Assembly: GCA_965218865.1 (NCBI GenBank)
Contig: CBDCME010000073.1
Location: 289,158 to 353,157, forward strand
Origin: Alphaproteobacteria bacterium
GTDB taxonomy: Bacteria; Pseudomonadota; Alphaproteobacteria; JAAXGF01
DNA: 64,000 bases
Direction of reading: 5' to 3'
Positions 10,663 through 61,134 of this stretch are shown piece by piece (position 1 is the first letter of the stretch; every line of letters begins with the position of its first letter). Below the pieces are notes generated by a model that ran no database searches, was not told the origin of the DNA, and saw only the letters and a program-made list of their open reading frames with translations. Position numbers and translations under genes: made by a program.

Positions 10663-10686
10663 GGCGGATGCGCACCGCCCCGCGGA

Positions 10687-13170: not shown

Positions 13171-13178
13171 CCCGCGGA

Positions 13179-15662: not shown

Positions 15663-15784
15663 CCCGCGGAGTGGTCGGCATTCGCAACGGCCGTCGAAAT
15701 TGCGCGCGCCAGCATGGCCAATACTTGCCGAGAATCGAAAAAGGGACGCGGCCCGTGTCCCCCTTAGTTTCCGATCACGGACGT

Positions 15785-42401: not shown

Positions 42402-43180
42402 TTAGGGTTGCAGGCACCCAGGTGACCGTTCTTCGACCAATTTTTTGAATTCCGGATCGGCAATCAGTCTTTCCGCGACGAGTTTCCCCAGTACGCTGCT
42501 GCCAAGTGGTGTCGTGTGTGTAAAATCCACGAAATGGCCGTGTTCGGAACGCAGAAACGGTCGAGGGTCGATCAATAAGGCGCCAGTTTCATTAGCTGTC
42601 TTCGTAACGACGCGACTATAGGCGGCGTAGACATCCAGAAAGCCCTGGACGGTCATATAGGGGAACAATGGTAGGCGATAACTTGCGGCGCCCAATTGCT
42701 CCCCGGGGGACTGATCCGCCCGCAACCGACGGGCATTATTGAGAAGCACGACCCGACGGCCTTCGTTTCCGACGATATCGACAAGATTGCGCAACCGGTC
42801 CCCGAACAAGGCCACGATTATTAGCGGGTTGATTTGCGGTTTTCGGTGTTCGATATGGGCGCTTCGCAGCAACTGAATAACGGCCATATTTTTCTTGATT
42901 AGTTTCCATAAAAGCAAGATTTCGGTGAACCAGCTCGGACGATATTGACGGGCTGACAATCCCTTATCGCGGGCGACTCGTCTCACGTCGAAGTTGAAGT
43001 CGCTGGCCAAGATTACGACGACATCGGGGTCGGTCTCTGCAACGTGACGCTGATAATGCAGTAGGATTTTCTCGGGTGACATCCCCGGAACGCCAGAATT
43101 TACATAGTCGAACCGGCAATCCTTCAGGTTCTCTTGAATCGTCCGCCACGCAATGAGTCGTCCGTGAAGAACCCTGATTT
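42402..43180 (-). pseudogene. SGNH/GDSL-family hydrolase, 5'-truncated by IS5-like insertion
   Basis: Block II-like NSGVPGMS is present, but no GDS block I. The ORF N-terminus runs into the IS. Confidence 0.4.
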
Positions 43181-44660
43181 CAAGCTGAAGCGGCGATTGG
43201 GTTTGCGGTGGGGTGCGAGATGTCGCTGAGGAGCGCGGCCAGGATTTGGACAAACAAACGCCTCAGCCATTTGAGGACAAGGCGGTAGTTGTAGCCGGCG
43301 CCGGCGAGGATGGCGTTGATCTTGTCGCCGTCGCGGCCTTTGAGGAAGTTGCGCCCCAGCCTGCCATCGCTCTTGAGATGTCCGATCACGGCCTCGACGG
43401 CGGAGCGCCGCCTGAGCTCCTTCTTGATCGTCGGCGTGATGCCGCGTTTCTGGCCTGATCTAAAGACGCGGTGTTTGTTGGGGTAATCGTGGCCCTGGTA
43501 TCCCTTGTCGACATAGATGCGCTCGGCCGATATCCCCGTCCAGCGTTCCATCTCTTCGATCACCTGCCTCAAGGTGTGGCCATCATAGGGATTGCCGTGG
43601 AAGGCCTTGACGTGGGCGACGAACTGGCCGCCGGGGGGGCGGGAATTGGTCGCCGCCACGGAGACCTTGCAGCCGAACTCGTACGGCTTGTGCGCCTTCC
43701 CTTTGCCGATGCATTCGACCTCGGGCGCGTGGAGCGAATAGACCTTGGGCAAGGGGTCGCGCCGCTTCTGGGTCGACACCCGCTCGGCCAGCCACAAGGG
43801 GCGGCGGAAGGTATCCCGTAGGCTCTCCTCCTGGGCCGTCTTGCGGCGGATGTCGCGGACGGTGCGCCCGAGATAGGTCTTGAGCTTGCGCAGGGCCTTG
43901 TTGGCCCGCTTGTGCTGTTTGGCATGGCGGTAGCGGCCTTGCATGATCAACGCCCTCTTGCCCAGGCGGGTATAGGACTGACGCAGGGCAATGCCGTGCT
44001 CCCGTGCCAGTCGCACCAGCCGCTCGCGGGCTCGTTGCATCAGTTTGGCGGCGGTCGGAAAGGCAATCGCCTTCTCTTGTACGGTGGTGTCCACCGTCAC
44101 CCGCTCGAGGTCCTTCTCCCGCAGCGCCCCCACCCGGTGGGCCACGGCCAGGCTCTCCTGGAATACCTTCTCCAAACCTTCCGGCCCGATCCGGTCCCGC
44201 CACCGGGTCATCGACGAGCGCTCCATGGGTAGCTCATGCTGAAAGTACTCTTCGCCGCAGAAGCACTGGAAGTATGGGTCGTAGACCCAGCGCTCGCAGA
44301 CCTCCTCATCCGAGAGATCGAACATATGCTTGAGGATGTGCAGCCCAACCATCAACCGCGTCGGGACCCCCGGCCGACCCTCCTCCGAATACAAGGCTTC
44401 ATAGGTCTCGTCGAAGAAAGTCCACGCGATCCGGCCCCCCAACACCACCAACTCGTGGCGCAGGTTGATGATGTTTTCGAACCGCGAGCGGAACAGGTCC
44501 TCTATTCCCGATGACACCTTGCGCGATGGCTTCATCACAGTTCTCCAATCCCAATCGACGGGAGCAGAGAATCACGTTCCGCAACGGAAGGGAATCCCCA
44601 AAATCAATTATTTCAAATCACAAGCTTTTCAGGCCCAAAACCCGTTTTCTTGCAAATCCG
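43150..44660 (-). mobile_element. IS5/IS1182-family insertion sequence (boundaries approximate)
   Basis: Contains a 452-aa DDE transposase. The ends were not resolved from inverted repeats. Confidence 0.5.
43180..44538 (-). CDS. IS5/IS1182-family transposase
   Basis: N-terminal InsH-like HTH (DUF772-like) plus DDE domain (YVDKGYQGHD ... AVEAVIGHLKSDGRLGRNFLKG). Confidence 0.8.
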   Translation of the reverse strand: MMKPSRKVSSGIEDLFRSRFENIINLRHELVVLGGRIAWTFFDETYEALYSEEGRPGVPTRLMVGLHILKHMFDLSDEEVCERWVYDPYFQCFCGEEYFQHELPMERSSMTRWRDRIGPEGLEKVFQESLAVAHRVGALREKDLERVTVDTTVQEKAIAFPTAAKLMQRARERLVRLAREHGIALRQSYTRLGKRALIMQGRYRHAKQHKRANKALRKLKTYLGRTVRDIRRKTAQEESLRDTFRRPLWLAERVSTQKRRDPLPKVYSLHAPEVECIGKGKAHKPYEFGCKVSVAATNSRPPGGQFVAHVKAFHGNPYDGHTLRQVIEEMERWTGISAERIYVDKGYQGHDYPNKHRVFRSGQKRGITPTIKKELRRRSAVEAVIGHLKSDGRLGRNFLKGRDGDKINAILAGAGYNYRLVLKWLRRLFVQILAALLSDISHPTANPIAASA

Positions 44661-44801: not shown

Positions 44802-46884
44802 GCAGGAACAATTTTTAGTCGCGGTTGAGGGTTCGGGATGAGTGGGATCGTGCTCGGTGCACGGGGTTCGGGGAGCCCCGAGCTTGCCTCGACGACGTCA
44901 TGGGGACTGCTCGAAGCCACCGGACGGCGTTTTCGGATTCGACAGGCACACCGGTCCGCCCGCGCCGCTCGGCGGCACGTCCCGGTCCGGGGGAGAGGCG
45001 TGCTGTCTCAGGCGATGGGCGCGGTCATGATCGCGTCGAGGGCCTCCTGCGCCCGGGCGGCATAGTGCCGGTTGGCCTCGGGCAGATAACGGAAGCGTCC
45101 GTCGCAGCGCACGATGGCGATGGCCGCGTTGGTCAAGCAGGCGAGATTTCTGGGCAGGTGACGCACGTAGGCCCGGCATCGGTCTTCGTCGTAGGTGAAG
45201 TCGCGCACGTAGTGCAGGCGGTTCTCGATATGCCAGTGGTTGCGCACCAGTTCGAGCAACTCCTCGGGTCCGGCGCGCTCTGCGCCGAGCGAGGTGAGGC
45301 TCCAGGTCACCTCGATGCTGCGCTTGCCGGTCTTGAGGATCTCGCGTTCGCGCTCGATGCGCATGGCCTGGCGTCGCCCGTGGAGGTTGGCGTAGCCGTC
45401 CCACTCGGCAGCGGAGAGGTCGACGACGGCGCAGCGTCGGCGCTCGATGCGGCCATGGCCCTTGTCGACGGTTTCGTGCCAGAGCGCATCGCTGAAGTCG
45501 ATCGCCTTGAGGTCTTCGAAGATCATCTCCTGGTTGTCCTTGACCGCGCTCATCACGTAGTCGGCGCGACGCCCGAGCAGGCAGCGCGCGGTCTCGTGCT
45601 GAGCGTGCATCGCGTCCATGGTGACGATCCGGCCTGTGAGGTCGAGGCCGCTGGAGAGTTCGCGCACGGCCGGCCGATTTCGTTGCTCTTGCGGTCGACC
45701 TCGACCTGCCCGAGGACCACGCCGGTGTCGTGCTCGACCGCCGCCACCATCATCCTGCGCCCGTCTTCGGTCTGCTTCGAGGCGCCGCGCAGATCCTTTC
45801 CGTCCATGGCGACCGGCGCGTGCGCGCTGCCATGCTGGCCGGTCCACTGGCTAATCGCGTTGTCCAGGGTCTCTGGCGGCAGGGCGGTGAGGGTCTTGTG
45901 GAAGGTGGTGATCGCGGGCGGGGTGTAGCGCTGTTTGGAAGGGCTCCAGAACGCACCCACCGCCTCGAGCTGCTCCTGGGAGAGCAGGGCGGCGAACTGG
46001 GCGAACGCGTTCACCCCCCGGTATCCGGCAAGCCGGGCGGCGACGGCGATCACCAGAATGGTGTTGAGCGCATAGCGCTTGCCCCGGGCATGGCGGTACT
46101 CGGGCACCTCACCCAGACACTCGAACAGGCTGCGCAGCCGGGGCGCGGCCATCGGCTCGGTGTGCTGCTCGGCGTTCCAGTGTGCCGGCATCCCGGTACG
46201 GCTCAGCGCCTCGGGGGCGCCGTCTGTCAGTCCGAACACGAAGACCTCCTTGGGCTGACCGTGGTGGCGCCAGCGCGCTGCCCCTCCGGGCTCACGGGCA
46301 AAGCCCCGCGTCAGCCCCAGAGAGCGCCAGTTCGACGCGCGGTAGCAGGTGCCGGCAAATCGCGAGACGTCCACGAACGTCTCCGCCAGAAGAGCCGGAT
46401 ATCCGTGCACCGCCTGGATGTCCTCAGACAGCCGCCGCAGGCTCAGCCCCAGCACACGGGAGGCCAGGTTCGGCACTCGGCCAGGCGTCAGAATGACGAA
46501 GCGCGAGTTGTTGGCGATCAGATGCAGACGCCGGAACTGCTGCTCGGCCGACCACCCGATCCAGCGATCACGCGCGCCCAGCTTGAACGCGCCGGGCTGC
46601 CAGCCGATCAGTGCGAGCCAGGTCTCGCCATGCACCGCGACATGGCGCAGGCCCTTGCCGATGACGCCGTGGAACGCCAGGTAGTGGTGCTGCTCCACCA
46701 ACCGGTCCCAGCGCCGGTGCTCCTGCGCGCCCCAGGTCGGACGCACCGTGACCGCGCGCAAATCAATGGACGAATCCGAGACCGGCAGCGTCGCCATGAC
46801 CGGCACACTGCCACACCGAGAATGAAATGGCCAGCGCCGCGATCACCTCACCCTGATCACTGGGCGGACAAAAAACTAGCCCTG
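44802..46884 (-). mobile_element. ISAs1-like insertion sequence, copy B (inverted; 9-bp TSD AAGTTGGGG; transposase frameshifted)
   Basis: 2083 bp. CCCCAACTT is found on both flanks of the + strand. It carries a 2-bp insertion relative to copy A (AAATCGGCCGGCCG versus AAATCCCGGCCG). Confidence 0.75.
45008..46806 (-). pseudogene. DUF4338-ISAs1 transposase, frameshifted copy
   Basis: Split into the 45553..46806 and 45008..45847 frames at a GGCC duplication after ...DRKSNEI. Confidence 0.75.
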
Positions 46885-48694: not shown

Positions 48695-50212
48695 TTATCG
48701 TTTCTCGGCCTTCCGGGCGGGCGGGGCGGTGATCTCGGGATAGACCGCGGTCATCACCCGCCACAAATCCGGCCATCCCCCGGGCTTGAGGCGGATACGG
48801 ACCGTGGACCCGTACATCCTGTCCGCTATGGGCGTCAGCGTTATTTTCTCGACCACCAGGCGCAGGGCATCCCTCAGGTATCCCGCCCGCGCCTGTTCGA
48901 GCAGATCCAGCTTCATCCGGTCAAGGGCGCGCCCGAGGGCGAGCCGAACCTCCCTTTCCGACGCCGGAAGCCCGGGAACGGTCTTTATCGCATTCTTCGC
49001 CGCCGTCAATCCCTTCTCTAGCTCCGCCATCCGCTGAAAGACACGTTCGGTCAGCAGTCCCCTTTCGGCCACCTTCAGGAGTTTCTCGATGCCACGGTTC
49101 TTCTCGGCGATCTCCTTCTCCAACGCGGCACGCCGCTCCCGGGCCCCCTCGACGAGAGCGTTCACGCCGGCGAAAAGACCGCGCTGCCGGGACAGGGATT
49201 TCCGCAGGGCCGGGAACAGCGCCCGCACCAGCTCCGGCACCCGCTTGCCGCGCGTGTTGTTGCACGTCCTGGTATAGCGCGCGTCGGCGCAGACGTACTG
49301 CCCCAGATTGGCCAGATGCGCCATGCCGCCGCAGCGCCCGCAACGAACCAGGCCGGTCAAAGGCTGGACGTTGTGGGGATTCCACTCGTGCCAGGCGCGT
49401 TTCTTCGATGCCGGACGCGGCTCCGCCTTCGGCTTGGACTCCCCGCCTGCTTGCGGCCCCCGCTGGCTCAACATGGTCCGCGCGCGATTCCACAGCCTCT
49501 CATTCACGATCCGCAGATGGGGAACCGGCGTGCGGATCCATTCCGATTCAGGATTGATCTTTGGCCGAGACCTTTTCGTCACCGGGTCGGTCACCCGCCG
49601 CGTGCGGTTGTAGACAAGGACGCCCTTGTAAATCTCGTTGCGCAGGGTGCCATCGCCGTTGGACCCCTTCCCATAGATGCTGGCGAACCGCCAAACCGCC
49701 CCGGAAGGCGAGGGGAGGCCGTCGGCGTTCAAGTCCCTGGCTATCGTCTTAATGGGCTTTCCGGCAACGAACTCCTTGAAAATCCGCCGCACCACCACCG
49801 CCTGGGCCTCGTCGATCTCCCGCAGGCCGTTAACGTTCCGGTTCTTCCCGTCGACCACCCCGCGTATCACCCGGTATCCGTAGGCGCGGCCCGAGGCGCG
49901 GCCCGAGGGCTGGCGCCCTTCCTCCGCGCGGGCGCGCTGGCCGCGCCTGATTTTGTCTTTCATGTCGTCAAGATAAATTGCGTTCATCGTCCCCTTGAAG
50001 CCGACGTGAAGCCAGGTGATCCTTCCTTCGTGGGCGGTGTGCATGCCCACCTCATAATACACCAGCCGGGCGTAGATCGCGGCGACGTCCTCCAGACTCC
50101 GGGTAACCCGGTCCAGCCCCTCGGCGACGACGACATCGAACTCCTTCCGTTCCGCGGCCTCCAGCAGCGCCTTCAGACCCTGGCGCCTGTCGGTCGCGCC
50201 GGTGAGTTCATG
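48695..50212 (-). pseudogene. large serine recombinase, C-terminal part (gene split by tandem IS66-like insertion)
   Basis: Recombinase domain, zinc ribbon (CGRCGG ... C) and coiled coil. Reading upstream to the IS junction gives the catalytic-domain sequence ELTGATDRRQGLKALLEAAERKEFDVVVAEGLDRVTRSLEDVAAIYARL. Confidence 0.7.
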
Positions 50213-50272
50213 GGTAATTGTTCGTTCAGGCCGTGGAATCAGCGCGGGCGTTTCTATCCGCCCCGGCGGATT

Positions 50273-51154
50273 TTAGCGATTGAGGCTGCGTTTCCAGTCT
50301 CGTCGCAGGGGCCGGAGCCAGACATCCTTTTTCGGCTTGTCAAACTGCCTGTCCCGGTCGTAGCGCCCGCGCCCCTGGGTGGCGCCGACATGGATCCAGC
50401 CCGATGCCCTGTAGACCGCGCCGGTATATCGCGGGGTCTCGACGAATGTCTCGATGAGCACGGGCGTGGTGTTGTAGCGCTCGGTCCAGTCGTCGGGCAG
50501 GCGCCGGCGGATGATGGCGAGGATGTGCGAGCCCAGGTTGGGGATCTTGATCCAGGGCAGGATCAGGAACCTCGGGTTGTCGACCACGAAGGGAAGGTTC
50601 TTCTCGCGCAGTTGCCGTGTCCATCCGATGAAGGTGTCGCGCGTGGCAAGCTTCCACGCGGCGGTGGAGAAGCCGAGCATGGCGAGTGGCCAGCCGTTTC
50701 GGTCATGGACGGCATAGCGCATCTGGGCGCCGACCAGGGTCTTGTATCCGAGATAGTGGTAGCGGGCGACGAACTCGTTCCAGAGCTTCCCTTCCCGGGT
50801 GCCGCGCACGACGGGGTGCAGGTCGAGCGGACGGACCTCGTCGAGGGTCGTCGGGGCCGGGAACAGCGGCGGTTCGGTGTCCGGCCCGAAGACGATCGGC
50901 CCGGGCCGGTTCTGCCGTCCCCGCGGCGCCGGCAGGGCGATCAGGCCGTCCCTGTGCATGGCCAGCATAGCGACCCTGGCCATCATGTCCTTGAGGCCGC
51001 CGTCGGGCTTGAACCAGCCGATGCGCCGGCAGAACTCCTTCGACAGCATATGGCGGTTCAACGGCGGCGGCCCGGCGATCAGCGCGCGCAGCAGCGCCAT
51101 TTCCCCGGCGGTGAAATCGCGGCCGTAATAACGGCACTCGATCTTGCCGGTCAT
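50273..51154 (-). CDS. standalone DUF4338 (DruA-like) protein, translationally coupled to tnpC
   Basis: Start MTGKIECRYYG overlaps the tnpC stop as ATGA. Motifs FIGW, DNPRFLILPW, ETFVE, YRASGW. Confidence 0.7.
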   Translation of the reverse strand: MTGKIECRYYGRDFTAGEMALLRALIAGPPPLNRHMLSKEFCRRIGWFKPDGGLKDMMARVAMLAMHRDGLIALPAPRGRQNRPGPIVFGPDTEPPLFPAPTTLDEVRPLDLHPVVRGTREGKLWNEFVARYHYLGYKTLVGAQMRYAVHDRNGWPLAMLGFSTAAWKLATRDTFIGWTRQLREKNLPFVVDNPRFLILPWIKIPNLGSHILAIIRRRLPDDWTERYNTTPVLIETFVETPRYTGAVYRASGWIHVGATQGRGRYDRDRQFDKPKKDVWLRPLRRDWKRSLNR

Positions 51155-53820
51155 CCCGGCGCCATGAGCTCGCGCCTGCGGTCCTCGCTCATCGACCATG
51201 GCAGCCACGGCGACATGTCATCCGGCGGTTTGCGGCCGTTCTTCGCGCAGGCTTCGAGCCACGCTTCCAGCCAGCGCAGGACGTCGATGCCGTTCATCGA
51301 GAGCGTGCCCACCACCGAGTACATGATCGCCGTGAACCTGGCGCCGTCCTCGCTGTTCGAACCGAAGCTTAATCGTCGTCCGATGACTGGCCCCCGGAGC
51401 GCGCGCTCGGCCTTGTTGTTGTCCATCGGAACCTGTGGCTTGTCGACGAAGACGCACAACCCCTCGCGGTGGTTGAGAAGCGAGCGCAGCGGCTTGGCCC
51501 TGCGCGCCCTCTCCGACAGGCCGGCCAACTCCGCTTCGGCGTCCGCGAACAGGCGGGCGACCGCCGCTTCCAACTCGCCCTGCGCCGCGTCGAACGCCGG
51601 TGTCCGGCGTTCGAGACCGGGGTCGTAATGCTCCAGCCGCGCCTCGTTCAGCCGGTAGATCTCCGCGATCCGCTCGATCCATCCCTGGCACCAGCCCGTC
51701 AGTCTCACCTGGCCGGCCGCGCACTCGATAAAATCGCGGCGCATATGGGACCAGCAGAATGCAAGGGTCACCTTGCCCTCGCGAAGGCGAGCGAGTCGCT
51801 TGTAGGCGCTATAGCGGTCGCAGACGATGACCGTGTCGAGGAGGCCTTCGGCGAACAGCTCGAGCGCCGCCTCGGCGCTGCGCGAGGGGTCGATATGGAA
51901 AGAGACCGCGTCATTGCTGACCGAGGTCCACAGCCAGGCCCGGCTCGACCGGTCTTCCCCGCGAAGCTCCTGGACGCGCCAACCGGTCTCGTCGGCGTGG
52001 CGCAGCGCCGCCTTGTTCTGGTGCGCGAGGATCGCCTTGGCGACCGGCTCGAACAGCGGCACGAAACGCTTCAGGCTGTCGGCCAGCGTCCCCGGTGAGA
52101 CCCCCAGGCCCTGGCTGGAGAACCACGCGGCAACCCGGTGCAGGGGGCGCAAGCAGGCACAGTGCTCGAACAGGAAGCGTGCCCAGAAGCTGGTCCCGTA
52201 GAGCGTCCTGGGGAACAGCCGCAGCACCGGGGGCGACGACACTTCCATGGGCGACGACGCGCACTCGCAGGTCCGGCGCCAGCGCGGACGGCGGATCACA
52301 CGCTTGTGGGCCTTGACCTCGATCTCGACGAGGGTGGATTCCTCGGCGCCGTTCGGCGCATAGGGCTGCCCGCACCGTCCGCAGACGCACGCATCCGGCG
52401 GCGGGTTGTGCTCTTCGGTGCGCTCCTTGAGCCCGGGCCGCTGGGTGCGGCCATGGCCGGGCGCGCCGCGCTGCTGGCCGCGCTTGCGTTCCGAGCCCGG
52501 CTTGTCCTGCTGTTCGCTCTTGCGGCCGTAGAGCGCCCTCGACAGCACAGCTCCGGTCGCGCGAAGCCTCTCAAGCTGGACTTCCAGCGTCTCGATCCGG
52601 TTCCGCGACGTCTTCGCGCCCTTGCGCAGCCGGGCGTTCTCCCGGGACAGCGACTTGATCGTGGCCTTCTGGCGCCGCGACCTTCGCAGAGCCCTGCGGA
52701 GATCGGCGTCTGCAACGGACAGCGACTTCGACAACGTCTTCCTGACCGCTCGAAGCCCGGCAAGCTCGGACTCGAGTGCCTTCCTGATCGCGCGAAGCTT
52801 GGCAGGCTGAACCTCCAGCGCCGCTTTCCGGGTCTCCAACTTCCGCATGGTCCTGCGCAGACGGGCGTTGTCCTTGCGCAGCGCCTCGATCGTCGTCTTC
52901 TGGCGCCGCGCTCGCCGCAACGCCGCGCGCAATTGAGCGGCCTCGTCGGACGGCAGCTTCGACAGCGTCGCCCCGGCCGCCCGGAGCTTGACGAGCCGGG
53001 CCTTCAACTTCTCCTGCCCGGCCTTGAACACCTCCAGGGCATGGCGCAGCCAGAAGACCTCGTCGGACAGCGATCGGGCCCGGGCCTCGCTGTCGCCCAG
53101 TATCCTCACCTCCCGATGGAGCCGAAGGGACTCGCTGGACAGCTTCCTGGCGGCCTCCCTGATGCTCTCCGTGCTCTCCTTCTCCCGGTCGAGGCGCTTG
53201 TTCAACTGGAGGATCTGCTTGTCCCGCCGGACCGCCTCGTTGTTGAGCCGGGTGATCTCCTTGCGTAGCGTCCTGATGGTGTCCTTCTGGTCCGGGGATC
53301 GCTCCAGGGCGGTGAGCCGCCGACGGGTCTCCGCGGGCCGCGGGCCGATCGCGCCCTCTCGGGCCTCCGGCGCGACCAGGGCCTTGCGCAGCCGGGCGTT
53401 CTCCTTGCGCAGCGCCTCGGTCGTGCTGCTCTCGTTCGACCCGATGCCGGCTTCGGAGAGGAGCGTCTCCAGGCGCGCCACTTCGGCCTGCAAGGAAGGC
53501 ACGTCCCTTGCCGCGCGGCGAGCTTCCTTCGTCTCCTCGACGGCCTCGCTCAACCTGCGCCGGCAGGCCTTGAACCGCGACTTCCACGAGCCGGCATCGC
53601 TACGCGAGGCCACTTCCGCCCAGCGTAGCTCTTCCGCGCGCGCTTCGGCCGCGTCCGCGCGGGCGCGCTCCCGCTCATACAGCGAGCGCAAGTCGCGCGG
53701 CGCGCGCTCCGGTAAGGACACCGGGCACGACCGGACCCCGCCATTACCCTCGACCAGCGTCAGGTCGGTGCCAAAATCCTCGTCCAGAACCGCCATGCGC
53801 TCGACGATAGCGCACGGCAA
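51151..53820 (-). CDS. tnpC: IS66-family transposase TnpC with extended N-terminal coiled coil
   Basis: 889 aa. Zinc-finger CxxC (ACVCGRCGQP) and the IS66 DDE core (HADETGWRV ... CDRYSAYK ... CWSHMRRDF). The N-terminal ~450 aa form a coiled coil with repeated (T/A)I(K/E)xLxxENARLR motifs. Confidence 0.8.
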   Translation of the reverse strand: MPCAIVERMAVLDEDFGTDLTLVEGNGGVRSCPVSLPERAPRDLRSLYERERARADAAEARAEELRWAEVASRSDAGSWKSRFKACRRRLSEAVEETKEARRAARDVPSLQAEVARLETLLSEAGIGSNESSTTEALRKENARLRKALVAPEAREGAIGPRPAETRRRLTALERSPDQKDTIRTLRKEITRLNNEAVRRDKQILQLNKRLDREKESTESIREAARKLSSESLRLHREVRILGDSEARARSLSDEVFWLRHALEVFKAGQEKLKARLVKLRAAGATLSKLPSDEAAQLRAALRRARRQKTTIEALRKDNARLRRTMRKLETRKAALEVQPAKLRAIRKALESELAGLRAVRKTLSKSLSVADADLRRALRRSRRQKATIKSLSRENARLRKGAKTSRNRIETLEVQLERLRATGAVLSRALYGRKSEQQDKPGSERKRGQQRGAPGHGRTQRPGLKERTEEHNPPPDACVCGRCGQPYAPNGAEESTLVEIEVKAHKRVIRRPRWRRTCECASSPMEVSSPPVLRLFPRTLYGTSFWARFLFEHCACLRPLHRVAAWFSSQGLGVSPGTLADSLKRFVPLFEPVAKAILAHQNKAALRHADETGWRVQELRGEDRSSRAWLWTSVSNDAVSFHIDPSRSAEAALELFAEGLLDTVIVCDRYSAYKRLARLREGKVTLAFCWSHMRRDFIECAAGQVRLTGWCQGWIERIAEIYRLNEARLEHYDPGLERRTPAFDAAQGELEAAVARLFADAEAELAGLSERARRAKPLRSLLNHREGLCVFVDKPQVPMDNNKAERALRGPVIGRRLSFGSNSEDGARFTAIMYSVVGTLSMNGIDVLRWLEAWLEACAKNGRKPPDDMSPWLPWSMSEDRRRELMAPG

Positions 53821-53984
53821 ATTCCGTTACCAGCAGAAAGACAGCACCTCGTGGGCTTCGCCTCAACTTGGGAAATGCGCTTGACGGCACCCATTCCACG
53901 GCCTGAACGAACACTTACCGCGCGTGTAATTGTTCGTTCAGGCCGTGGAATCAGCGCGGGCGTTTCTATCCGCCCCGGCGGATT

Positions 53985-54866
53985 TTAGCGATTGAGGCTG
54001 CGTTTCCAGTCTCGTCGCAGGGGCCGGAGCCAGACATCCTTTTTCGGCTTGTCAAACTGCCTGTCCCGGTCGTAGCGCCCGCGCCCCTGGGTGGCGCCGA
54101 CATGGATCCAGCCCGATGCCCTGTAGACCGCGCCGGTATATCGCGGGGTCTCGACGAATGTCTCGATGAGCACGGGCGTGGTGTTGTAGCGCTCGGTCCA
54201 GTCGTCGGGCAGGCGCCGGCGGATGATGGCGAGGATGTGCGAGCCCAGGTTGGGGATCTTGATCCAGGGCAGGATCAGGAACCTCGGGTTGTCGACCACG
54301 AAGGGAAGGTTCTTCTCGCGCAGTTGCCGTGTCCATCCGATGAAGGTGTCGCGCGTGGCAAGCTTCCACGCGGCGGTGGAGAAGCCGAGCATGGCGAGTG
54401 GCCAGCCGTTTCGGTCATGGACGGCATAGCGCATCTGGGCGCCGACCAGGGTCTTGTATCCGAGATAGTGGTAGCGGGCGACGAACTCGTTCCAGAGCTT
54501 CCCTTCCCGGGTGCCGCGCACGACGGGGTGCAGGTCGAGCGGACGGACCTCGTCGAGGGTCGTCGGGGCCGGGAACAGCGGCGGTTCGGTGTCCGGCCCG
54601 AAGACGATCGGCCCGGGCCGGTTCTGCCGTCCCCGCGGCGCCGGCAGGGCGATCAGGCCGTCCCTGTGCATGGCCAGCATAGCGACCCTGGCCATCATGT
54701 CCTTGAGGCCGCCGTCGGGCTTGAACCAGCCGATGCGCCGGCAGAACTCCTTCGACAGCATATGGCGGTTCAACGGCGGCGGCCCGGCGATCAGCGCGCG
54801 CAGCAGCGCCATTTCCCCGGCGGTGAAATCGCGGCCGTAATAACGGCACTCGATCTTGCCGGTCAT
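53985..54866 (-). CDS. standalone DUF4338 (DruA-like) protein (copy 2)
   Basis: Identical to the 50273..51154 product. Confidence 0.7.
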   Translation of the reverse strand: MTGKIECRYYGRDFTAGEMALLRALIAGPPPLNRHMLSKEFCRRIGWFKPDGGLKDMMARVAMLAMHRDGLIALPAPRGRQNRPGPIVFGPDTEPPLFPAPTTLDEVRPLDLHPVVRGTREGKLWNEFVARYHYLGYKTLVGAQMRYAVHDRNGWPLAMLGFSTAAWKLATRDTFIGWTRQLREKNLPFVVDNPRFLILPWIKIPNLGSHILAIIRRRLPDDWTERYNTTPVLIETFVETPRYTGAVYRASGWIHVGATQGRGRYDRDRQFDKPKKDVWLRPLRRDWKRSLNR

Positions 54867-57532
54867 CCCGGCGCCATGAGCTCGCGCCTGCGGTCCTCGC
54901 TCATCGACCATGGCAGCCACGGCGACATGTCATCCGGCGGTTTGCGGCCGTTCTTCGCGCAGGCTTCGAGCCACGCTTCCAGCCAGCGCAGGACGTCGAT
55001 GCCGTTCATCGAGAGCGTGCCCACCACCGAGTACATGATCGCCGTGAACCTGGCGCCGTCCTCGCTGTTCGAACCGAAGCTTAATCGTCGTCCGATGACT
55101 GGCCCCCGGAGCGCGCGCTCGGCCTTGTTGTTGTCCATCGGAACCTGTGGCTTGTCGACGAAGACGCACAACCCCTCGCGGTGGTTGAGAAGCGAGCGCA
55201 GCGGCTTGGCCCTGCGCGCCCTCTCCGACAGGCCGGCCAACTCCGCTTCGGCGTCCGCGAACAGGCGGGCGACCGCCGCTTCCAACTCGCCCTGCGCCGC
55301 GTCGAACGCCGGTGTCCGGCGTTCGAGACCGGGGTCGTAATGCTCCAGCCGCGCCTCGTTCAGCCGGTAGATCTCCGCGATCCGCTCGATCCATCCCTGG
55401 CACCAGCCCGTCAGTCTCACCTGGCCGGCCGCGCACTCGATAAAATCGCGGCGCATATGGGACCAGCAGAATGCAAGGGTCACCTTGCCCTCGCGAAGGC
55501 GAGCGAGTCGCTTGTAGGCGCTATAGCGGTCGCAGACGATGACCGTGTCGAGGAGGCCTTCGGCGAACAGCTCGAGCGCCGCCTCGGCGCTGCGCGAGGG
55601 GTCGATATGGAAAGAGACCGCGTCATTGCTGACCGAGGTCCACAGCCAGGCCCGGCTCGACCGGTCTTCCCCGCGAAGCTCCTGGACGCGCCAACCGGTC
55701 TCGTCGGCGTGGCGCAGCGCCGCCTTGTTCTGGTGCGCGAGGATCGCCTTGGCGACCGGCTCGAACAGCGGCACGAAACGCTTCAGGCTGTCGGCCAGCG
55801 TCCCCGGTGAGACCCCCAGGCCCTGGCTGGAGAACCACGCGGCAACCCGGTGCAGGGGGCGCAAGCAGGCACAGTGCTCGAACAGGAAGCGTGCCCAGAA
55901 GCTGGTCCCGTAGAGCGTCCTGGGGAACAGCCGCAGCACCGGGGGCGACGACACTTCCATGGGCGACGACGCGCACTCGCAGGTCCGGCGCCAGCGCGGA
56001 CGGCGGATCACACGCTTGTGGGCCTTGACCTCGATCTCGACGAGGGTGGATTCCTCGGCGCCGTTCGGCGCATAGGGCTGCCCGCACCGTCCGCAGACGC
56101 ACGCATCCGGCGGCGGGTTGTGCTCTTCGGTGCGCTCCTTGAGCCCGGGCCGCTGGGTGCGGCCATGGCCGGGCGCGCCGCGCTGCTGGCCGCGCTTGCG
56201 TTCCGAGCCCGGCTTGTCCTGCTGTTCGCTCTTGCGGCCGTAGAGCGCCCTCGACAGCACAGCTCCGGTCGCGCGAAGCCTCTCAAGCTGGACTTCCAGC
56301 GTCTCGATCCGGTTCCGCGACGTCTTCGCGCCCTTGCGCAGCCGGGCGTTCTCCCGGGACAGCGACTTGATCGTGGCCTTCTGGCGCCGCGACCTTCGCA
56401 GAGCCCTGCGGAGATCGGCGTCTGCAACGGACAGCGACTTCGACAACGTCTTCCTGACCGCTCGAAGCCCGGCAAGCTCGGACTCGAGTGCCTTCCTGAT
56501 CGCGCGAAGCTTGGCAGGCTGAACCTCCAGCGCCGCTTTCCGGGTCTCCAACTTCCGCATGGTCCTGCGCAGACGGGCGTTGTCCTTGCGCAGCGCCTCG
56601 ATCGTCGTCTTCTGGCGCCGCGCTCGCCGCAACGCCGCGCGCAATTGAGCGGCCTCGTCGGACGGCAGCTTCGACAGCGTCGCCCCGGCCGCCCGGAGCT
56701 TGACGAGCCGGGCCTTCAACTTCTCCTGCCCGGCCTTGAACACCTCCAGGGCATGGCGCAGCCAGAAGACCTCGTCGGACAGCGATCGGGCCCGGGCCTC
56801 GCTGTCGCCCAGTATCCTCACCTCCCGATGGAGCCGAAGGGACTCGCTGGACAGCTTCCTGGCGGCCTCCCTGATGCTCTCCGTGCTCTCCTTCTCCCGG
56901 TCGAGGCGCTTGTTCAACTGGAGGATCTGCTTGTCCCGCCGGACCGCCTCGTTGTTGAGCCGGGTGATCTCCTTGCGTAGCGTCCTGATGGTGTCCTTCT
57001 GGTCCGGGGATCGCTCCAGGGCGGTGAGCCGCCGACGGGTCTCCGCGGGCCGCGGGCCGATCGCGCCCTCTCGGGCCTCCGGCGCGACCAGGGCCTTGCG
57101 CAGCCGGGCGTTCTCCTTGCGCAGCGCCTCGGTCGTGCTGCTCTCGTTCGACCCGATGCCGGCTTCGGAGAGGAGCGTCTCCAGGCGCGCCACTTCGGCC
57201 TGCAAGGAAGGCACGTCCCTTGCCGCGCGGCGAGCTTCCTTCGTCTCCTCGACGGCCTCGCTCAACCTGCGCCGGCAGGCCTTGAACCGCGACTTCCACG
57301 AGCCGGCATCGCTACGCGAGGCCACTTCCGCCCAGCGTAGCTCTTCCGCGCGCGCTTCGGCCGCGTCCGCGCGGGCGCGCTCCCGCTCATACAGCGAGCG
57401 CAAGTCGCGCGGCGCGCGCTCCGGTAAGGACACCGGGCACGACCGGACCCCGCCATTACCCTCGACCAGCGTCAGGTCGGTGCCAAAATCCTCGTCCAGA
57501 ACCGCCATGCGCTCGACGATAGCGCACGGCAA
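54863..57532 (-). CDS. tnpC: IS66-family transposase TnpC (copy 2)
   Basis: Identical to the 51151..53820 product. Confidence 0.8.
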   Translation of the reverse strand: MPCAIVERMAVLDEDFGTDLTLVEGNGGVRSCPVSLPERAPRDLRSLYERERARADAAEARAEELRWAEVASRSDAGSWKSRFKACRRRLSEAVEETKEARRAARDVPSLQAEVARLETLLSEAGIGSNESSTTEALRKENARLRKALVAPEAREGAIGPRPAETRRRLTALERSPDQKDTIRTLRKEITRLNNEAVRRDKQILQLNKRLDREKESTESIREAARKLSSESLRLHREVRILGDSEARARSLSDEVFWLRHALEVFKAGQEKLKARLVKLRAAGATLSKLPSDEAAQLRAALRRARRQKTTIEALRKDNARLRRTMRKLETRKAALEVQPAKLRAIRKALESELAGLRAVRKTLSKSLSVADADLRRALRRSRRQKATIKSLSRENARLRKGAKTSRNRIETLEVQLERLRATGAVLSRALYGRKSEQQDKPGSERKRGQQRGAPGHGRTQRPGLKERTEEHNPPPDACVCGRCGQPYAPNGAEESTLVEIEVKAHKRVIRRPRWRRTCECASSPMEVSSPPVLRLFPRTLYGTSFWARFLFEHCACLRPLHRVAAWFSSQGLGVSPGTLADSLKRFVPLFEPVAKAILAHQNKAALRHADETGWRVQELRGEDRSSRAWLWTSVSNDAVSFHIDPSRSAEAALELFAEGLLDTVIVCDRYSAYKRLARLREGKVTLAFCWSHMRRDFIECAAGQVRLTGWCQGWIERIAEIYRLNEARLEHYDPGLERRTPAFDAAQGELEAAVARLFADAEAELAGLSERARRAKPLRSLLNHREGLCVFVDKPQVPMDNNKAERALRGPVIGRRLSFGSNSEDGARFTAIMYSVVGTLSMNGIDVLRWLEAWLEACAKNGRKPPDDMSPWLPWSMSEDRRRELMAPG

Positions 57533-57630
57533 ATTCCGTTACCAGCAGAAAGACAGCACCTCGTGGGCTTCGCCTCAACTTGGGAAATGCGCTTGACGGC
57601 ACCCATTCCACGGCCTGAACGAACACTTAC

Positions 57631-57787
57631 GTTCATGGTCCGAAAACACAGCCGCTTCGCCGCCAGGGACACAGAACTCCCGCTCGATCAGCCTTCGGCA
57701 CAGCGCGACCTGATCGGCGACGCTCAGCGGATTCTGAATTTTCGACGAATAGCGGGCGTAGATTGCCGCTTTCGGCTTCGCTTTCAT
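57631..57787 (-). pseudogene. large serine recombinase, N-terminal fragment (catalytic Ser region)
   Basis: MKAKPKAAIYARYSSKIQNPLSVADQVALCRRLIEREFCVPGGEAAVFSDHE, then the IS66 TIR. It continues in frame with the 48695..50212 fragment across the insertion. Confidence 0.7.
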
Positions 57788-57959
57788 CGTCTTCCTTGCA
57801 TCGCGCACGGAGACGGAAACCTAGCGGTTTGCCGGTGAAAGTCAAAACGCCCGCAGAGGGGTCCATCAGGATCGGCGCGGACGGCGCAACGCATTGATAT
57901 ATCGTTGAAATTCTATTTCGACCCGGAGCGTTCATCGACGCGCGAAGCCGTAGGGATTC

Positions 57960-58255
57960 CAATGCGCGCAACGAAAAACATGGAAAAACATGATTATCGG
58001 AAAGCGAAACATGAAAAAACATGATTTGCCCGTAACATATTGATTTATCGCCTTGAATCCCAAACCATGCCGAACATTTCCGCAATTTGCTGAACGTTAC
58101 GACCAGTTTCACAAACCTTTCGTGTCCATGCAACCCATTGATATAACATCATATTTTCCTTAAATTTCCTACAATTTCCCTAAATTTATCTGATTTCCTT
58201 AAATTTCCTGCCGTTTGATGGCAGGTTATGCAATGTGGGCCCACACATTGCCCAC
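57960..58255. repeat. AT-rich iteron-like region (4x AAACATGA, 3x TCCTTAAATTTCCT-like, two short palindromes)
   Basis: GC drops far below window average. Direct repeats at 57974-58024 and 58155-58208. Palindromes CCTGCC-N7-GGCAGG and GCAATGTG-N6-CACATTGC. Confidence 0.45.
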
Positions 58256-58429: not shown

Positions 58430-61134
58430 TCAGCGCCCGAGGCCGCTTTCGGCGGCACGCGACGGCGCCAGGCGGGACAGCCCGGCCAGTTGCCGCCTGA
58501 TCTCCGGGCGCCGGGCCGCCTCGCGCCACATCTCGCCGAAGGTTGTTTTGCCTTCTTTCGCCGGAGGTGGAACGATCACCTTGCCGTTCACCGCCTTGGC
58601 GGCTTCCCTAGCGTCGGACCGCCCCCTCGCCGCCGCGGCGTTATCGGTGGCGACAACGATTCCGGCCTTCGGATGTTTGAGGCGCCACGCCTCGGCGACC
58701 GCCTTGAGGTTGTCCGCACCGAAGGCGCAAAGCGTCCGCCGGCCCGTGGCCTCGTGGATGGCGGCGGCGGACGCCAGGTCCTTGGCGATAACGGCGTCGC
58801 CCTTGCCGCCGGGTTTCTCCTTGCCGATCCCGAACATCAGGCCCTCGGGGCTTCCGGAGGCCCAGGCGCTCGGCGGTCTCGCCATTATCGTCCAGGGCGC
58901 ACAAGCCCCAGACGCGCCCGCTTGCATCGGTCAACGGAACCAGGACATGCTTGTCCCGGCGCAGGTTCTCCACGGGAAGGCCGGGCGGCAGCCCTTGCGG
59001 CGTACCGTCCTTGCCGAGGGGCTCGGCGTTTCGCCAGCGCAGCCACACGGCGTCCCCCGGCGGGACGGGCCAGCACATCGCGGATTTTGTCGGGATCGCC
59101 CGCCCTTTCCGCGAACGACGCGGCGCCTTCGGGAACGGCGAGGGTGGCGCGCGTTTCCCCGGCCGATTCCTTCAGGGATCCGGCCCGTTCCTTGTCCGCC
59201 GCGATGACCAGCTTGCCGTCCGGATAGCGTTCCCGCAGCGCCCGCGCGAGGTCTCCCATCTTGTCCGCCTCTTCCGCCACCGCCCACGGGCAGCCTCGTG
59301 GCCTTGTGGATCGCCGCGCCCGAGAGATAGTCGCCGGCGACGACGATCGCGTCCTTGCCGGCCCGCCGCCCCGGATCGATCACGTGCATCAGCGCCCAGA
59401 CCCACGCCGCCGTCCTGGCCTGAACCCTGCCGGCGCGGCGCGTCCCGCCGTCCCTGGCGATGAACTTGACATCATGGAGCCGGCCGTGGACGTCCTTGAG
59501 CGGCATGGCCACGCCGCCGTCCGGCGCCAGCTTGAGGCCGAATCCTCGGACCCGGTTCTCCATCAGCCAGGGCGTGTTGCCGGGGGTGGTCCCACGGCGC
59601 GCCCTTGAGTTCCGTCCACGCCATTTGCGCCTTGTCGCCCACCAGAGGCGCGAGCCTTGCCCGCAAATCCGCGGGCTTCACCGTCCCGGTCCGATCGTCG
59701 TTCCATTCCTTCACTTCCAGGGCCTCGACGCCGACCGCCCTGGCCCGCTCGGCGAAAGCCGCCGCCCCGGCGGCCGCGATCTTACAATCCGCATGTTTGG
59801 CGCGCAGGCAGGCGGCCGCGGCCTTGAGGTCTCCGCCCTTAGGCACCAACGCCACAGGCGCGTGCGCGGCGTTGCGAACGGCGGCGGCGGCGGCGATATT
59901 ATCGGTTAGCACCACGGCCGGGGGCTTCCCGCCCGCTTCGATTCTCCGCTCCGGGTCGATGACGTGCAGCAATCCCTTCTTGCCGAGGTTTCCGATCTCC
60001 GTCGTCTTTCCGTCCGGCTTGAGAACCTGCAAGCCCCCATACGTGGCCGTCCTTGCCGCGGAACGGAACCATCAGGTTGCCGCTTCCGTCCTCCCTCAAT
60101 CCCAGACTCCGCGCCCCGCCCTTTTCCTTGACCCACGGCCCGGCCGTTCCATCCGCCCACTTGCCCGCGTCGATCCAGTGCCTCAGTGCCGGACGCAGGG
60201 TCCGGGGCAGCCGGTCCCGGCCACCATCGCCGAAGGCCCGGAACATCTTCTTGTAGGTCATGATGACGACCAGGGCCAAGGGATCGCGGTAGGCCTCGTT
60301 GATGAGAAACTGCTTCCAGTCCGCCGCTATTCTCCCGGCCAGCGTTTTCGGACGCCTTCTCCGTCCAGTGAAGGTCCGCCACAGGCGCGAAGCCCCGGGG
60401 TGCCGGGTCAGGGGCTTTGCGCTGTAGCGCCGGCGCGGCTTGGACGCGCTCGCCTTGTCCATGGATTCGTAAGGGCCCAAGCGCTCTTTCAGCTTGCTGA
60501 ACGTGAGGTCCGGGCCCGCGAGGCTCGCCTTGACCACCTCCGGGCCGTCCCGCCGTTTCAACGCCAGGCCGGCGCCGCGCCGTTTGATCTCGATATCGAA
60601 GGCGGCGAGCCCCTGGTGCAACTCGCGCCAGGTGCGCGCCTTCCCGGCGATCCCGAGAATCTCTTTCCTGTTGTCGAGAACGTGGTTCTGAAACGATTGG
60701 CGCCAGGTCCGCGCCTCGAAGTCCCGCGCCGCCGGGTGCGCAACGGCGCGGCCCTTGCCGTCCCGGTTGTCGTAGTCGGACCCGCCGAGATCGACGTGAA
60801 GCCCGTACTTTCTCTCCATCGCCCGGCACGTCCTCTCCAGCGCCTTGTAGTCGTTCCACGGCGTGTGGACCGTCAGCTTCCCGGGATGGACCCTGTTGAT
60901 GGCCACGTGCATGTGAAAGTTGTCGGTGTTTTCGTGCGTCCCCGCCACCCGCTGGTGCTCGCCGAAGCCCAGGGCCTCGGCGATGGCCAGGTCCAGGTCC
61001 ACCTCGTCCCCGCCGGCGCAATTGACCGTCCACAGGTCCACCAGCTTCTCGCCCTTTTCCTTGGCCGCCGCGATGTATCCGGACAAGCACCCGAATTTTC
61101 CCTTCACCGTCCGGCCGATCTTCTTGGCGATCAT
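58430..61134 (-). pseudogene. traI: MOBP-family relaxase (RP4 TraI-like); N-terminal relaxase domain intact, C-terminal region broken over at least 4 frames
   Basis: N-terminal part 59899..61134 shows MIAK ... YI ... VNC ... GFGEHQRV ... HENTDNFHMHVAINRVHP (3-His motif). Downstream, repeated about 90-aa modules appear in the ORFs 59472..60032, 58931..59563, 58885..59280 and 58430..58927, each in a different frame. Confidence 0.7.

Follow-up and report, generated by a model that had tools for sequence, protein, structure and literature searches.

An IS66-family tandem pair in an alphaproteobacterial contig that joins a long TnpC transposase to a DUF4338/DruA gene in place of tnpA and tnpB

We analysed a stretch of 64,000 nucleotides from an Alphaproteobacteria bacterium (assembly GCA_965218865.1, contig CBDCME010000073.1, positions 289,158 to 353,157), referred to below as the window. 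It is crowded with mobile elements around two head-to-tail copies of an insertion sequence (IS) of the IS66 family. Each copy encodes the transposase TnpC followed by a protein of the DUF4338 (DruA) family, and the pair interrupts a gene for a large serine recombinase. The features of the pair and of its insertion site are as follows.

48695-50213, minus strand: C-terminal part of the interrupted large serine recombinase gene; joins 57639-57808 after removal of the dimer
50206-50213: left copy of the 8-bp target-site duplication, GTTCATGG; same octamer at 57631-57638
50214-53918, minus strand: IS copy A, 3705 bp, the downstream copy by gene orientation; 100% identical to 53926-57630
50214-50239: copy A terminal inverted repeat on the DUF4338-gene side (IRR); 25/26 match to the opposite end
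50273-51154, minus strand: copy A DUF4338/DruA-family gene, 293 amino acids; predicted N-terminal domain (residues 1-78) and Mom-like GNAT domain (about 104-293)
51151-53796, minus strand: copy A tnpC, IS66-family DDE transposase, 881 amino acids from the probable ATG start; matches to PF03050 and NF033517
52537-53679, minus strand: stretch of copy A tnpC coding for the N-terminal extension (residues about 40-420), which is rich in coiled coil and carries the four TIxxLRKENARLR units, as placed by motif positions, DNA repeats and heptad periodicity
53893-53918: copy A terminal inverted repeat on the tnpC side (IRL); 25/26 match to IRR
53919-53925: 7-bp spacer CGCGCGT between the abutted ends of the copies; differs from the target duplication and from the local flank
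53926-57630, minus strand: IS copy B, 3705 bp, the upstream copy by gene orientation; no differences from copy A
53985-54866, minus strand: copy B DUF4338/DruA-family gene; the copy A gene shifted by 3712 bp
54863-57508, minus strand: copy B tnpC; the copy A gene shifted by 3712 bp
57631-57638: right copy of the 8-bp target-site duplication, GTTCATGG; matches the left octamer
57639-57808, minus strand: N-terminal part of the interrupted serine recombinase gene, with the AIYARYSS catalytic-serine motif; frame restored by removal of the dimer

Pairwise comparison of the two copies shows 0 differences over 3705 bp. Their ends are 26-bp inverted repeats that start with GTAA and match at 25 of 26 positions (GTAAGTGTTCG.../GTAATTGTTCG...). 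When the dimer and one octamer are deleted in silico, 48695-50213 and 57639-57808 form a single frame of 566 amino acids (stop to stop) encoding a large serine recombinase; the pair therefore represents a true insertion, accompanied by a single 8-bp target duplication. The perfect identity over 3.7 kb, the restored host reading frame and the recurrence of the same architecture across dozens of independent contigs exclude chance. An initial annotation, made from the sequence alone, had described tandem 3.7-kb copies with 26-bp terminal inverted repeats of the IS66 type, and had argued from the spacer that the dimer is not a simple duplication of the IS with its target site. The coordinates, the GTAA-type ends and the 7-bp spacer, which is unrelated to the 8-bp duplication, agree with that description.

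Terminal repeats starting with GTAA are a trait of the IS66 family. The element shares with IS66 and IS679 these repeats, a homologous TnpC and an 8-bp target duplication, a length documented for IS66 (PMC6778807). In the 889-residue frame of TnpC, residues 539-828 match the Pfam family DDE_Tnp_IS66 (PF03050, E=1.1e-56), and residues 451-857 match the NCBIfam IS66 transposase equivalog NF033517 over model positions 2-386 of 387 (271.6 bits, with a cut-off of 180). The same ends occur in relatives, and more than 20 related copies are flanked by perfect 8-bp duplications, so the family assignment first made for the pair holds. A lone copy at another locus (L047) is 99.95% identical to the window element and has its own 8-bp duplication (CCATGCGG). 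Together, this lone copy and the more than 20 perfectly flanked relatives identify the element as active and multi-copy. A near-identity search of PLSDB returned no match. It is a real, active variant of the IS66 family that is undescribed in the searchable literature.

The IS66 family traits that we find are thus the transposase, GTAA ends of the 20-30-bp class and the 8-bp duplication; the tnpA and tnpB genes of the IS66 group are absent, as the initial annotation had stated. The start of tnpC lies only 122 bp from the element end, none of the ten alternative-frame open reading frames (ORFs) inside the element has a Pfam match, and tblastn probes of canonical TnpA and TnpB gave no match to the window or to any of about 70 related loci. 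In work by Han et al. in 2001, both genes were reportedly required for IS679. Unlike IS66 and IS679, the element carries a DUF4338 GNAT gene downstream of tnpC, and its TnpC has about 350 additional N-terminal coiled-coil residues. The IS66-family elements with a single ORF, tnpC only, form the ISBst12 group. Elements of this group and the one described here both lack tnpA and tnpB, and in both TnpC is the sole canonical IS66 protein. However, a second, obligatory gene lies within the ends of every copy, coupled to the first, so the single-ORF layout of ISBst12 does not apply strictly; this separation is drawn from the group description.

The maximal tnpC frame is 889 amino acids long, as initially given, and begins with a TTG at 53820. 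The protein itself probably starts at the ATG at 53796 and has 881 residues, since 881-residue relatives in the database begin there. Its DDE domain starts at residue 539 of the longer frame (about 531 of the shorter), compared with residues 187-188 in the canonical-length relatives P0362 and P0377. The protein therefore extends about 350 amino acids beyond these relatives and is, as proposed, far longer than a typical TnpC. The reiterated unit (T/A)I(K/E)xLR(K/R)(E/D)NARLR, also noted at the outset, was located four times in the N-terminal half, at residues 125, 173, 302 and 379 of the 881-residue protein. In relaxed Pfam scans residues 1-440 match only generic coiled-coil families, and none of these above threshold. 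Significant heptad periodicity is confined mainly to residues 160-420 or so and is interrupted by breaks rich in proline and glycine. The N-terminal coiled coil of about 450 residues in the initial annotation is therefore borne out as a coiled-coil-rich half, but one that is segmented rather than a continuous coil.

The last zipper unit directly precedes the sequence LYGRKSEQ, a position that we take to be the site of the single leucine zipper in an ordinary TnpC, and for this reason the extension looks like a reiteration of that zipper module. TnpC ranges from 609 to 888 amino acids across related loci, and its N-terminal part is the least conserved segment. We propose that this long, segmented coiled coil, which differs in length between lineages, arose by reiteration of the leucine-zipper region.

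The stop codon of tnpC and the start codon of the DUF4338 gene overlap as ATGA, a feature read correctly in the initial annotation. This gene pair marks a large lineage. Relatives of this TnpC make up at least 1071 clusters of the protein collection and those of its partner at least 4919, and an exhaustive search among representatives at 50% identity gave 8312 DUF4338 relatives. We examined 44 loci from long-read metagenome-assembled genomes, drawn from Alphaproteobacteria, Thalassobaculaceae, Binatia, Bryobacterales and Ectothiorhodospiraceae. Every full-length tnpC in them is directly followed by a DUF4338 gene, either overlapping it or 3 bp away. The arrangement holds from 87% down to 37% TnpC identity and recurs in 25 further places; thus the question raised initially, whether other copies keep the pairing, is answered by the presence of the partner with every full-length relative examined. 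In some lineages both proteins are encoded as one polypeptide (P0052, P0219, P0362 and P0377).

In every case the partner (77-95%) exceeds the transposase core (68-87%) in conservation, and its gene has a ratio of nonsynonymous to synonymous substitution rates (dN/dS) of 0.19-0.27. For tnpC, dN/dS was used only where ungapped tails align, and misaligned rows were dropped. Between the window element and its relative at L002, synonymous divergence is 0.045 in the DUF4338 gene and 0.284 in the last 400 codons of tnpC, a six-fold difference. This disparity suggests that the elements are mosaic, with modules exchanged between elements and separate histories for the two genes.

Junctions at which the right end of one copy abuts the left end of another were found in 9 of about 73 places, with spacers of 6 bp (L061), 7 bp (the window and L019), 8 bp (L063), 9 bp (L009, L011, L032 and L067, the last = L085) and 11 bp (L059). 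By a rough estimate, which was not computed, random insertion would fall within 11 bp of a resident end about once per 10^4 to 10^5 events. At L085, where both copies are complete and identical, the arrangement reads ...CCT GAATAGGT / IS / G AATAGGTG / IS / AATAGGTG TTCTTG. Both copies there are bordered by an 8-bp duplication of their own, and the duplications lie 1 bp out of register. Only successive insertion events can produce this layout, the later one having struck exactly 1 bp from the end already present. The geometry at L009 and L011 is the same. What adjoins the copy at L011, L032 and L059 is either a remnant end or the end of a different relative, which rules out duplication as the origin of the junction. 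The IS66-type lineage thus tends to insert beside its own ends, as shown for these relatives of the window element. We know of no report of tandem dimers, or of insertion next to own ends, for IS66.

Abutted ends a few bp apart, and repeated insertion beside a resident end, are features of the (IS)2 dimers of IS30, IS21 and IS911/IS3. The junctions described here share the closely abutted ends, but the spacers of those dimers are 2-3 bp long rather than 6-11 bp. The present junctions persist in genomes and therefore, unlike the dimers of IS30, IS21 and IS911, are apparently not hyper-reactive.

The window dimer has one outer duplication and a spacer unrelated to its flank, so it was not formed in place by the route seen at L085. 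An origin of its spacer in situ, whether by dimerisation of sister copies or by insertion beside a resident end at this site, was considered and rejected, because the spacer does not resemble the local flank. The account as a whole seems to us probable: an active IS66-family pair of a two-gene lineage, tnpC with a GNAT-type DUF4338/DruA gene and without tnpA and tnpB, and a dimer that formed elsewhere or by recombination. Two routes may be envisaged. A dimer with the 7-bp junction could have arisen elsewhere by end-adjacent insertion and then transposed by its outer ends, or homologous recombination with a dimer or circular form could have turned a resident single copy into a dimer. Either route would leave a single outer duplication and a foreign spacer.

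A more specific alternative starts from a circular copy-out intermediate in which 7 bp of donor flank linked the two ends, and which underwent homologous recombination with a single copy already in place. A circle followed by recombination predicts both the lone outer duplication and the foreign spacer, and spacers of 6-8 bp unrelated to the flank occur also at L019, L061 and L063. However, two scans of JGI metagenomes for end-spacer-end junctions gave 0 matches, so that no circle junction was recovered, and the best-resolved dimers (L085, L009 and L011) go back to ordinary insertions, each of which left its own duplication. To our knowledge, circular intermediates have not been established for IS66. 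We regard this origin as rather unlikely.

The partner protein of 293 residues matches the Pfam family PF14236 (DruA, formerly DUF4338) with 132.2 bits, the gathering score being 27. It shares this family with DruA of the type I Druantia system, and the PADLOC DruA1 model matches it weakly (E=5.7e-6). Structure prediction from a shallow alignment was unusable (predicted local distance difference test score, pLDDT, of 48), whereas a diverse alignment gave a pLDDT of 91.8. In the predicted structure a linker connects a small N-terminal domain (residues 1-78) to a GNAT-fold domain (about residues 104-293). Foldseek searches with this structure returned acetyltransferases at probability 1.0, and DUF4338 has independently been called a GNAT domain (PMC10853773). 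A relaxed Pfam scan gave no match for the N-terminal domain, and a sequence search of the PDB with a DUF4338 profile gave no significant match.

The closest structural match of the partner is Mom of phage Mu, a tRNA-dependent DNA adenine aminoacyltransferase (PDB 8bv8; PMC13219725). The 78-residue N-terminal domain has no relation to Mom. For the GNAT domain we compared the catalytic set of Mom (the essential R111, S124 and R151, with H58, Y59, D149 and Y159), a pairing of residues that combines the fold match with a profile match that is not significant by itself. The profile alignment is colinear across the whole domain at 13% identity. It pairs S209 with S124 of Mom, E239 with D149 and Y248 with Y159, brings R242 near R151, and sets H133-Y134 opposite H58-Y59 within one residue. 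In DUF4338 modules that are about 30% identical and come from three IS families, H133, S209, E/D239 and Y248 are invariant, as are R195 and N206, and Y134 and R242 are nearly so. From this predicted structure and conservation pattern we infer, on good grounds, that the protein is a Mom-like active transferase.

The module is also joined to transposases of other kinds. It is fused N-terminally to Tn5/IS4-type transposases in P0365, P0405, P0431 and P0388, and occurs together with an ISAs1-associated domain in P0106; a Thiodictyon protein of this latter kind is named 'ISAs1 family transposase' by NCBI. The IS4-type fusion forms a family of at least 717 clusters, reaching as low as 48% identity; both domains are present in every one, and the NCBI name is only 'IS4 family transposase'. 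The window contains both types, as listed here.

10779-13061 and 13271-15553: two proteins of 760 amino acids with DruA and IS4-type transposase domains
38383-40179 and 45553-46806: proteins with DruA and ISAs1-type transposase domains

Identity among the three kinds of DUF4338 module found in the window is 30-35%, which indicates that their associations with transposases are old. The DUF4338 partner is an integral, selected part of the transposition module, since it is always present, is better conserved than the transposase, is sometimes fused to it, and has been fused independently to IS4- and ISAs1-type transposases.

The IS4-type proteins belong to a second head-to-tail pair (10677-15671, unit 2492 bp), whose copies differ by one single-nucleotide polymorphism (12059 C/T) and have the 11-bp sequence GCCCCGCGGAG to the left, between and to the right of them (DR-IS-DR-IS-DR, where DR is the direct repeat). 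Their ORF of 760 residues corresponds to 737 residues in the identical database protein P0436. The idea that tandem dimers are typical of all elements with DUF4338 found no support, because none of the 14 other places of the IS4-type fusion family is tandem; end-adjacent insertion is therefore a trait of the IS66-type lineage and not a general one for DUF4338 elements. The ISAs1-type elements stand as inverted copies at 38305-40385 (plus strand) and 44802-46884 (minus strand), 99.9% identical, with the DUF4338 GNAT domain at the N-terminus of a transposase of 598 amino acids; the ORF of the second copy is truncated to 417. Between them lies an IS5-type transposase (DUF772 and DDE_Tnp_1) at 43180-44538. 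The fetched loci contain no copies of the IS4- and ISAs1-type elements of the window.

As to mechanism, the GNAT domain of the IS66-type element is probably an active acyl- or aminoacyltransferase of the type of phage Mu Mom. Its target would most likely be nucleic acid, namely DNA within or close to the element, or else the transposition complex. Its action would license or restrain transposition and would stand in for TnpA and TnpB. A bolder form of this proposal takes DUF4338/DruA to be a Mom-type transferase that modifies nucleic acid and was recruited by at least three unrelated DDE families (IS66, IS4/Tn5 and ISAs1). It would place a covalent mark on element ends or target, or charge or consume an aminoacyl-tRNA, in order to license or limit transposition, replacing TnpA and TnpB in the IS66 lineage, and DruA of Druantia would be the same enzyme redeployed for marking self and non-self. 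We think it unlikely that the proposal is correct in this full form. If it were, transposition would be controlled on a new principle, by a DNA hypermodification enzyme that the transposon itself encodes and that acts in cis.

Several observations weigh against the account given here. The hhalign profile comparison with Mom is insignificant by itself (E=0.027, probability 1.8%). R111 of Mom has no clear counterpart in DUF4338 in the alignment, and the essential helix-turn-helix-like insertion of Mom (residues about 175-209) is absent, its place being taken by a 23-residue alignment gap. For these three reasons the likeness to Mom is treated as inferred and not as demonstrated membership. A viral fold library returned unnamed GNATs, and since Mom did not appear by name this search gives no independent confirmation. 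As regards the dimer, the source of its 7-bp spacer was not found, and no sigma-70 consensus promoter of the type formed at IS30, IS21 and IS911 junctions was detected at the window junction or upstream of the outer copy, by rules that may not be those of the host. TnpA and TnpB could in principle be supplied in trans by elements outside the window. Finally, the lineage may already bear a name in ISfinder, as it is the searchable literature in which it is undescribed.

The partner might instead be a pseudo-enzyme, a non-catalytic helper for DNA binding or scaffolding that replaces TnpA and TnpB in assembly of the complex. Against this, the residues that match the catalytic set of Mom (H133, S209, E/D239, R242 and Y248), and with them R195 and N206, show little or no variation among modules from three IS families that share about 30% identity. 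Such conservation is typical of an active site and not of a scaffold. A non-catalytic role therefore seems to us unlikely.

A further alternative takes the DUF4338 gene to be cargo with no role in transposition, carried for the benefit of the host and representing either a fragment or a solitary component of an anti-phage system like Druantia. The Pfam family name DruA and the weak PADLOC match fit this idea, as does the frequent carriage of defence genes by mobile elements, several of the related loci being in defence-rich neighbourhoods. However, in contrast to the operon of type I Druantia, in which DruA stands with DruB, DruC, DruD and the large helicase DruE, the neighbours of the gene are tnpC and the IS ends; DruB-E are absent, the longest frame in the 64-kb window being 891 amino acids. 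The gene is moreover translationally coupled to tnpC in all lineages, fused to a transposase in three unrelated IS families, and fixed in position within terminal repeats that hold no other cargo. Its repeated recruitment, in different positions, by unrelated DDE transposases makes mere cargo very unlikely.

Faulty assembly or a trivial tandem duplication is an extremely improbable source of the pair, for although repeats are error-prone in assemblies and the window holds a second tandem IS pair, the junction contains a unique 7 bp that differ from the duplication, independent assemblies show similar junctions with exact and interpretable target duplications (base-exact at L085, which is not what assembly error would yield), and the second, IS4-type pair carries a nucleotide difference and has a different architecture.

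These results define a large IS66-family lineage, with hundreds of TnpC clusters and thousands of partner clusters, whose helpers are unlike those of the textbook tnpA-tnpB-tnpC arrangement. This affects IS annotation, in which current pipelines name the partner merely a DUF4338 protein. For DUF4338/DruA, the signature protein of type I Druantia, they offer a concrete biochemical hypothesis, a Mom-like transferase with the predicted catalytic set H133, S209, E239, R242 and Y248; the searchable literature yielded no functional study of DruA or DUF4338, and a paper on YprA and Druantia contains nothing on DruA itself. The module is coupled or fused to transposases of three families that are unrelated to one another, which points to a general connection of GNAT-type modification enzymes with DDE transposition. 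No such connection is described in the searchable literature, where we found no paper linking DUF4338 with IS66 or any transposase and none on IS66 with GNAT proteins or circular forms. Insertion of the element beside its own ends is documented at base-pair resolution, and the resulting tandem dimers are substrates for genome rearrangement.

Other arrangements of copies occur among the related loci. At L078 (16831-20538), a complete copy is preceded by a second version of the initial 115 bp of the IS, and one 8-bp duplication (CGCGGGTC) flanks the whole; the structure resembles what recombination would leave after one copy had inserted into the leader of another. At L001 (1539-7623) and L013, a complete copy abuts, head to head, a copy truncated within tnpC. 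The composite at L001 is bounded by GGTTCGCG on both sides. This arrangement indicates either that one copy inserted into another or that an inversion took place between copies.

L059, L060, L063 and L065 have in common with one another at least 60 bp of flank on either side of the IS66-type element, despite different neighbouring genes, which indicates that the element is nested in another multi-copy repeated element. The target duplications at these four loci are degenerate or replaced. Many copies of the IS66-type element, at L079, L081 and several other loci, lie in surroundings rich in defence and mobile elements. The defence-type genes near them include CBASS-like E2/ThiF/JAB genes, patatin, AbiJ/AbiU2, RES toxins, HEPN, and type I and ISP restriction genes.

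Just past the start of the interrupted recombinase gene, the window contains an AT-rich array (58155-58216) in which about six units resembling TTTCC(T/C)TAAA recur at a spacing of 9-10 bp, and which could be an iteron-like or bent-DNA regulatory region. A relaxase of the MobA/VirD2 type with a TraI middle domain is encoded nearby at 59899-61134 (minus strand), and suggests that the recombinase gene and the IS pair are located on a conjugative or mobilisable element. Following the relaxase, within 58430-61134 (minus strand), three overlapping ORFs of 165-210 amino acids share a 26-nucleotide repeat every 552-568 bp or so and may represent one repetitive gene.

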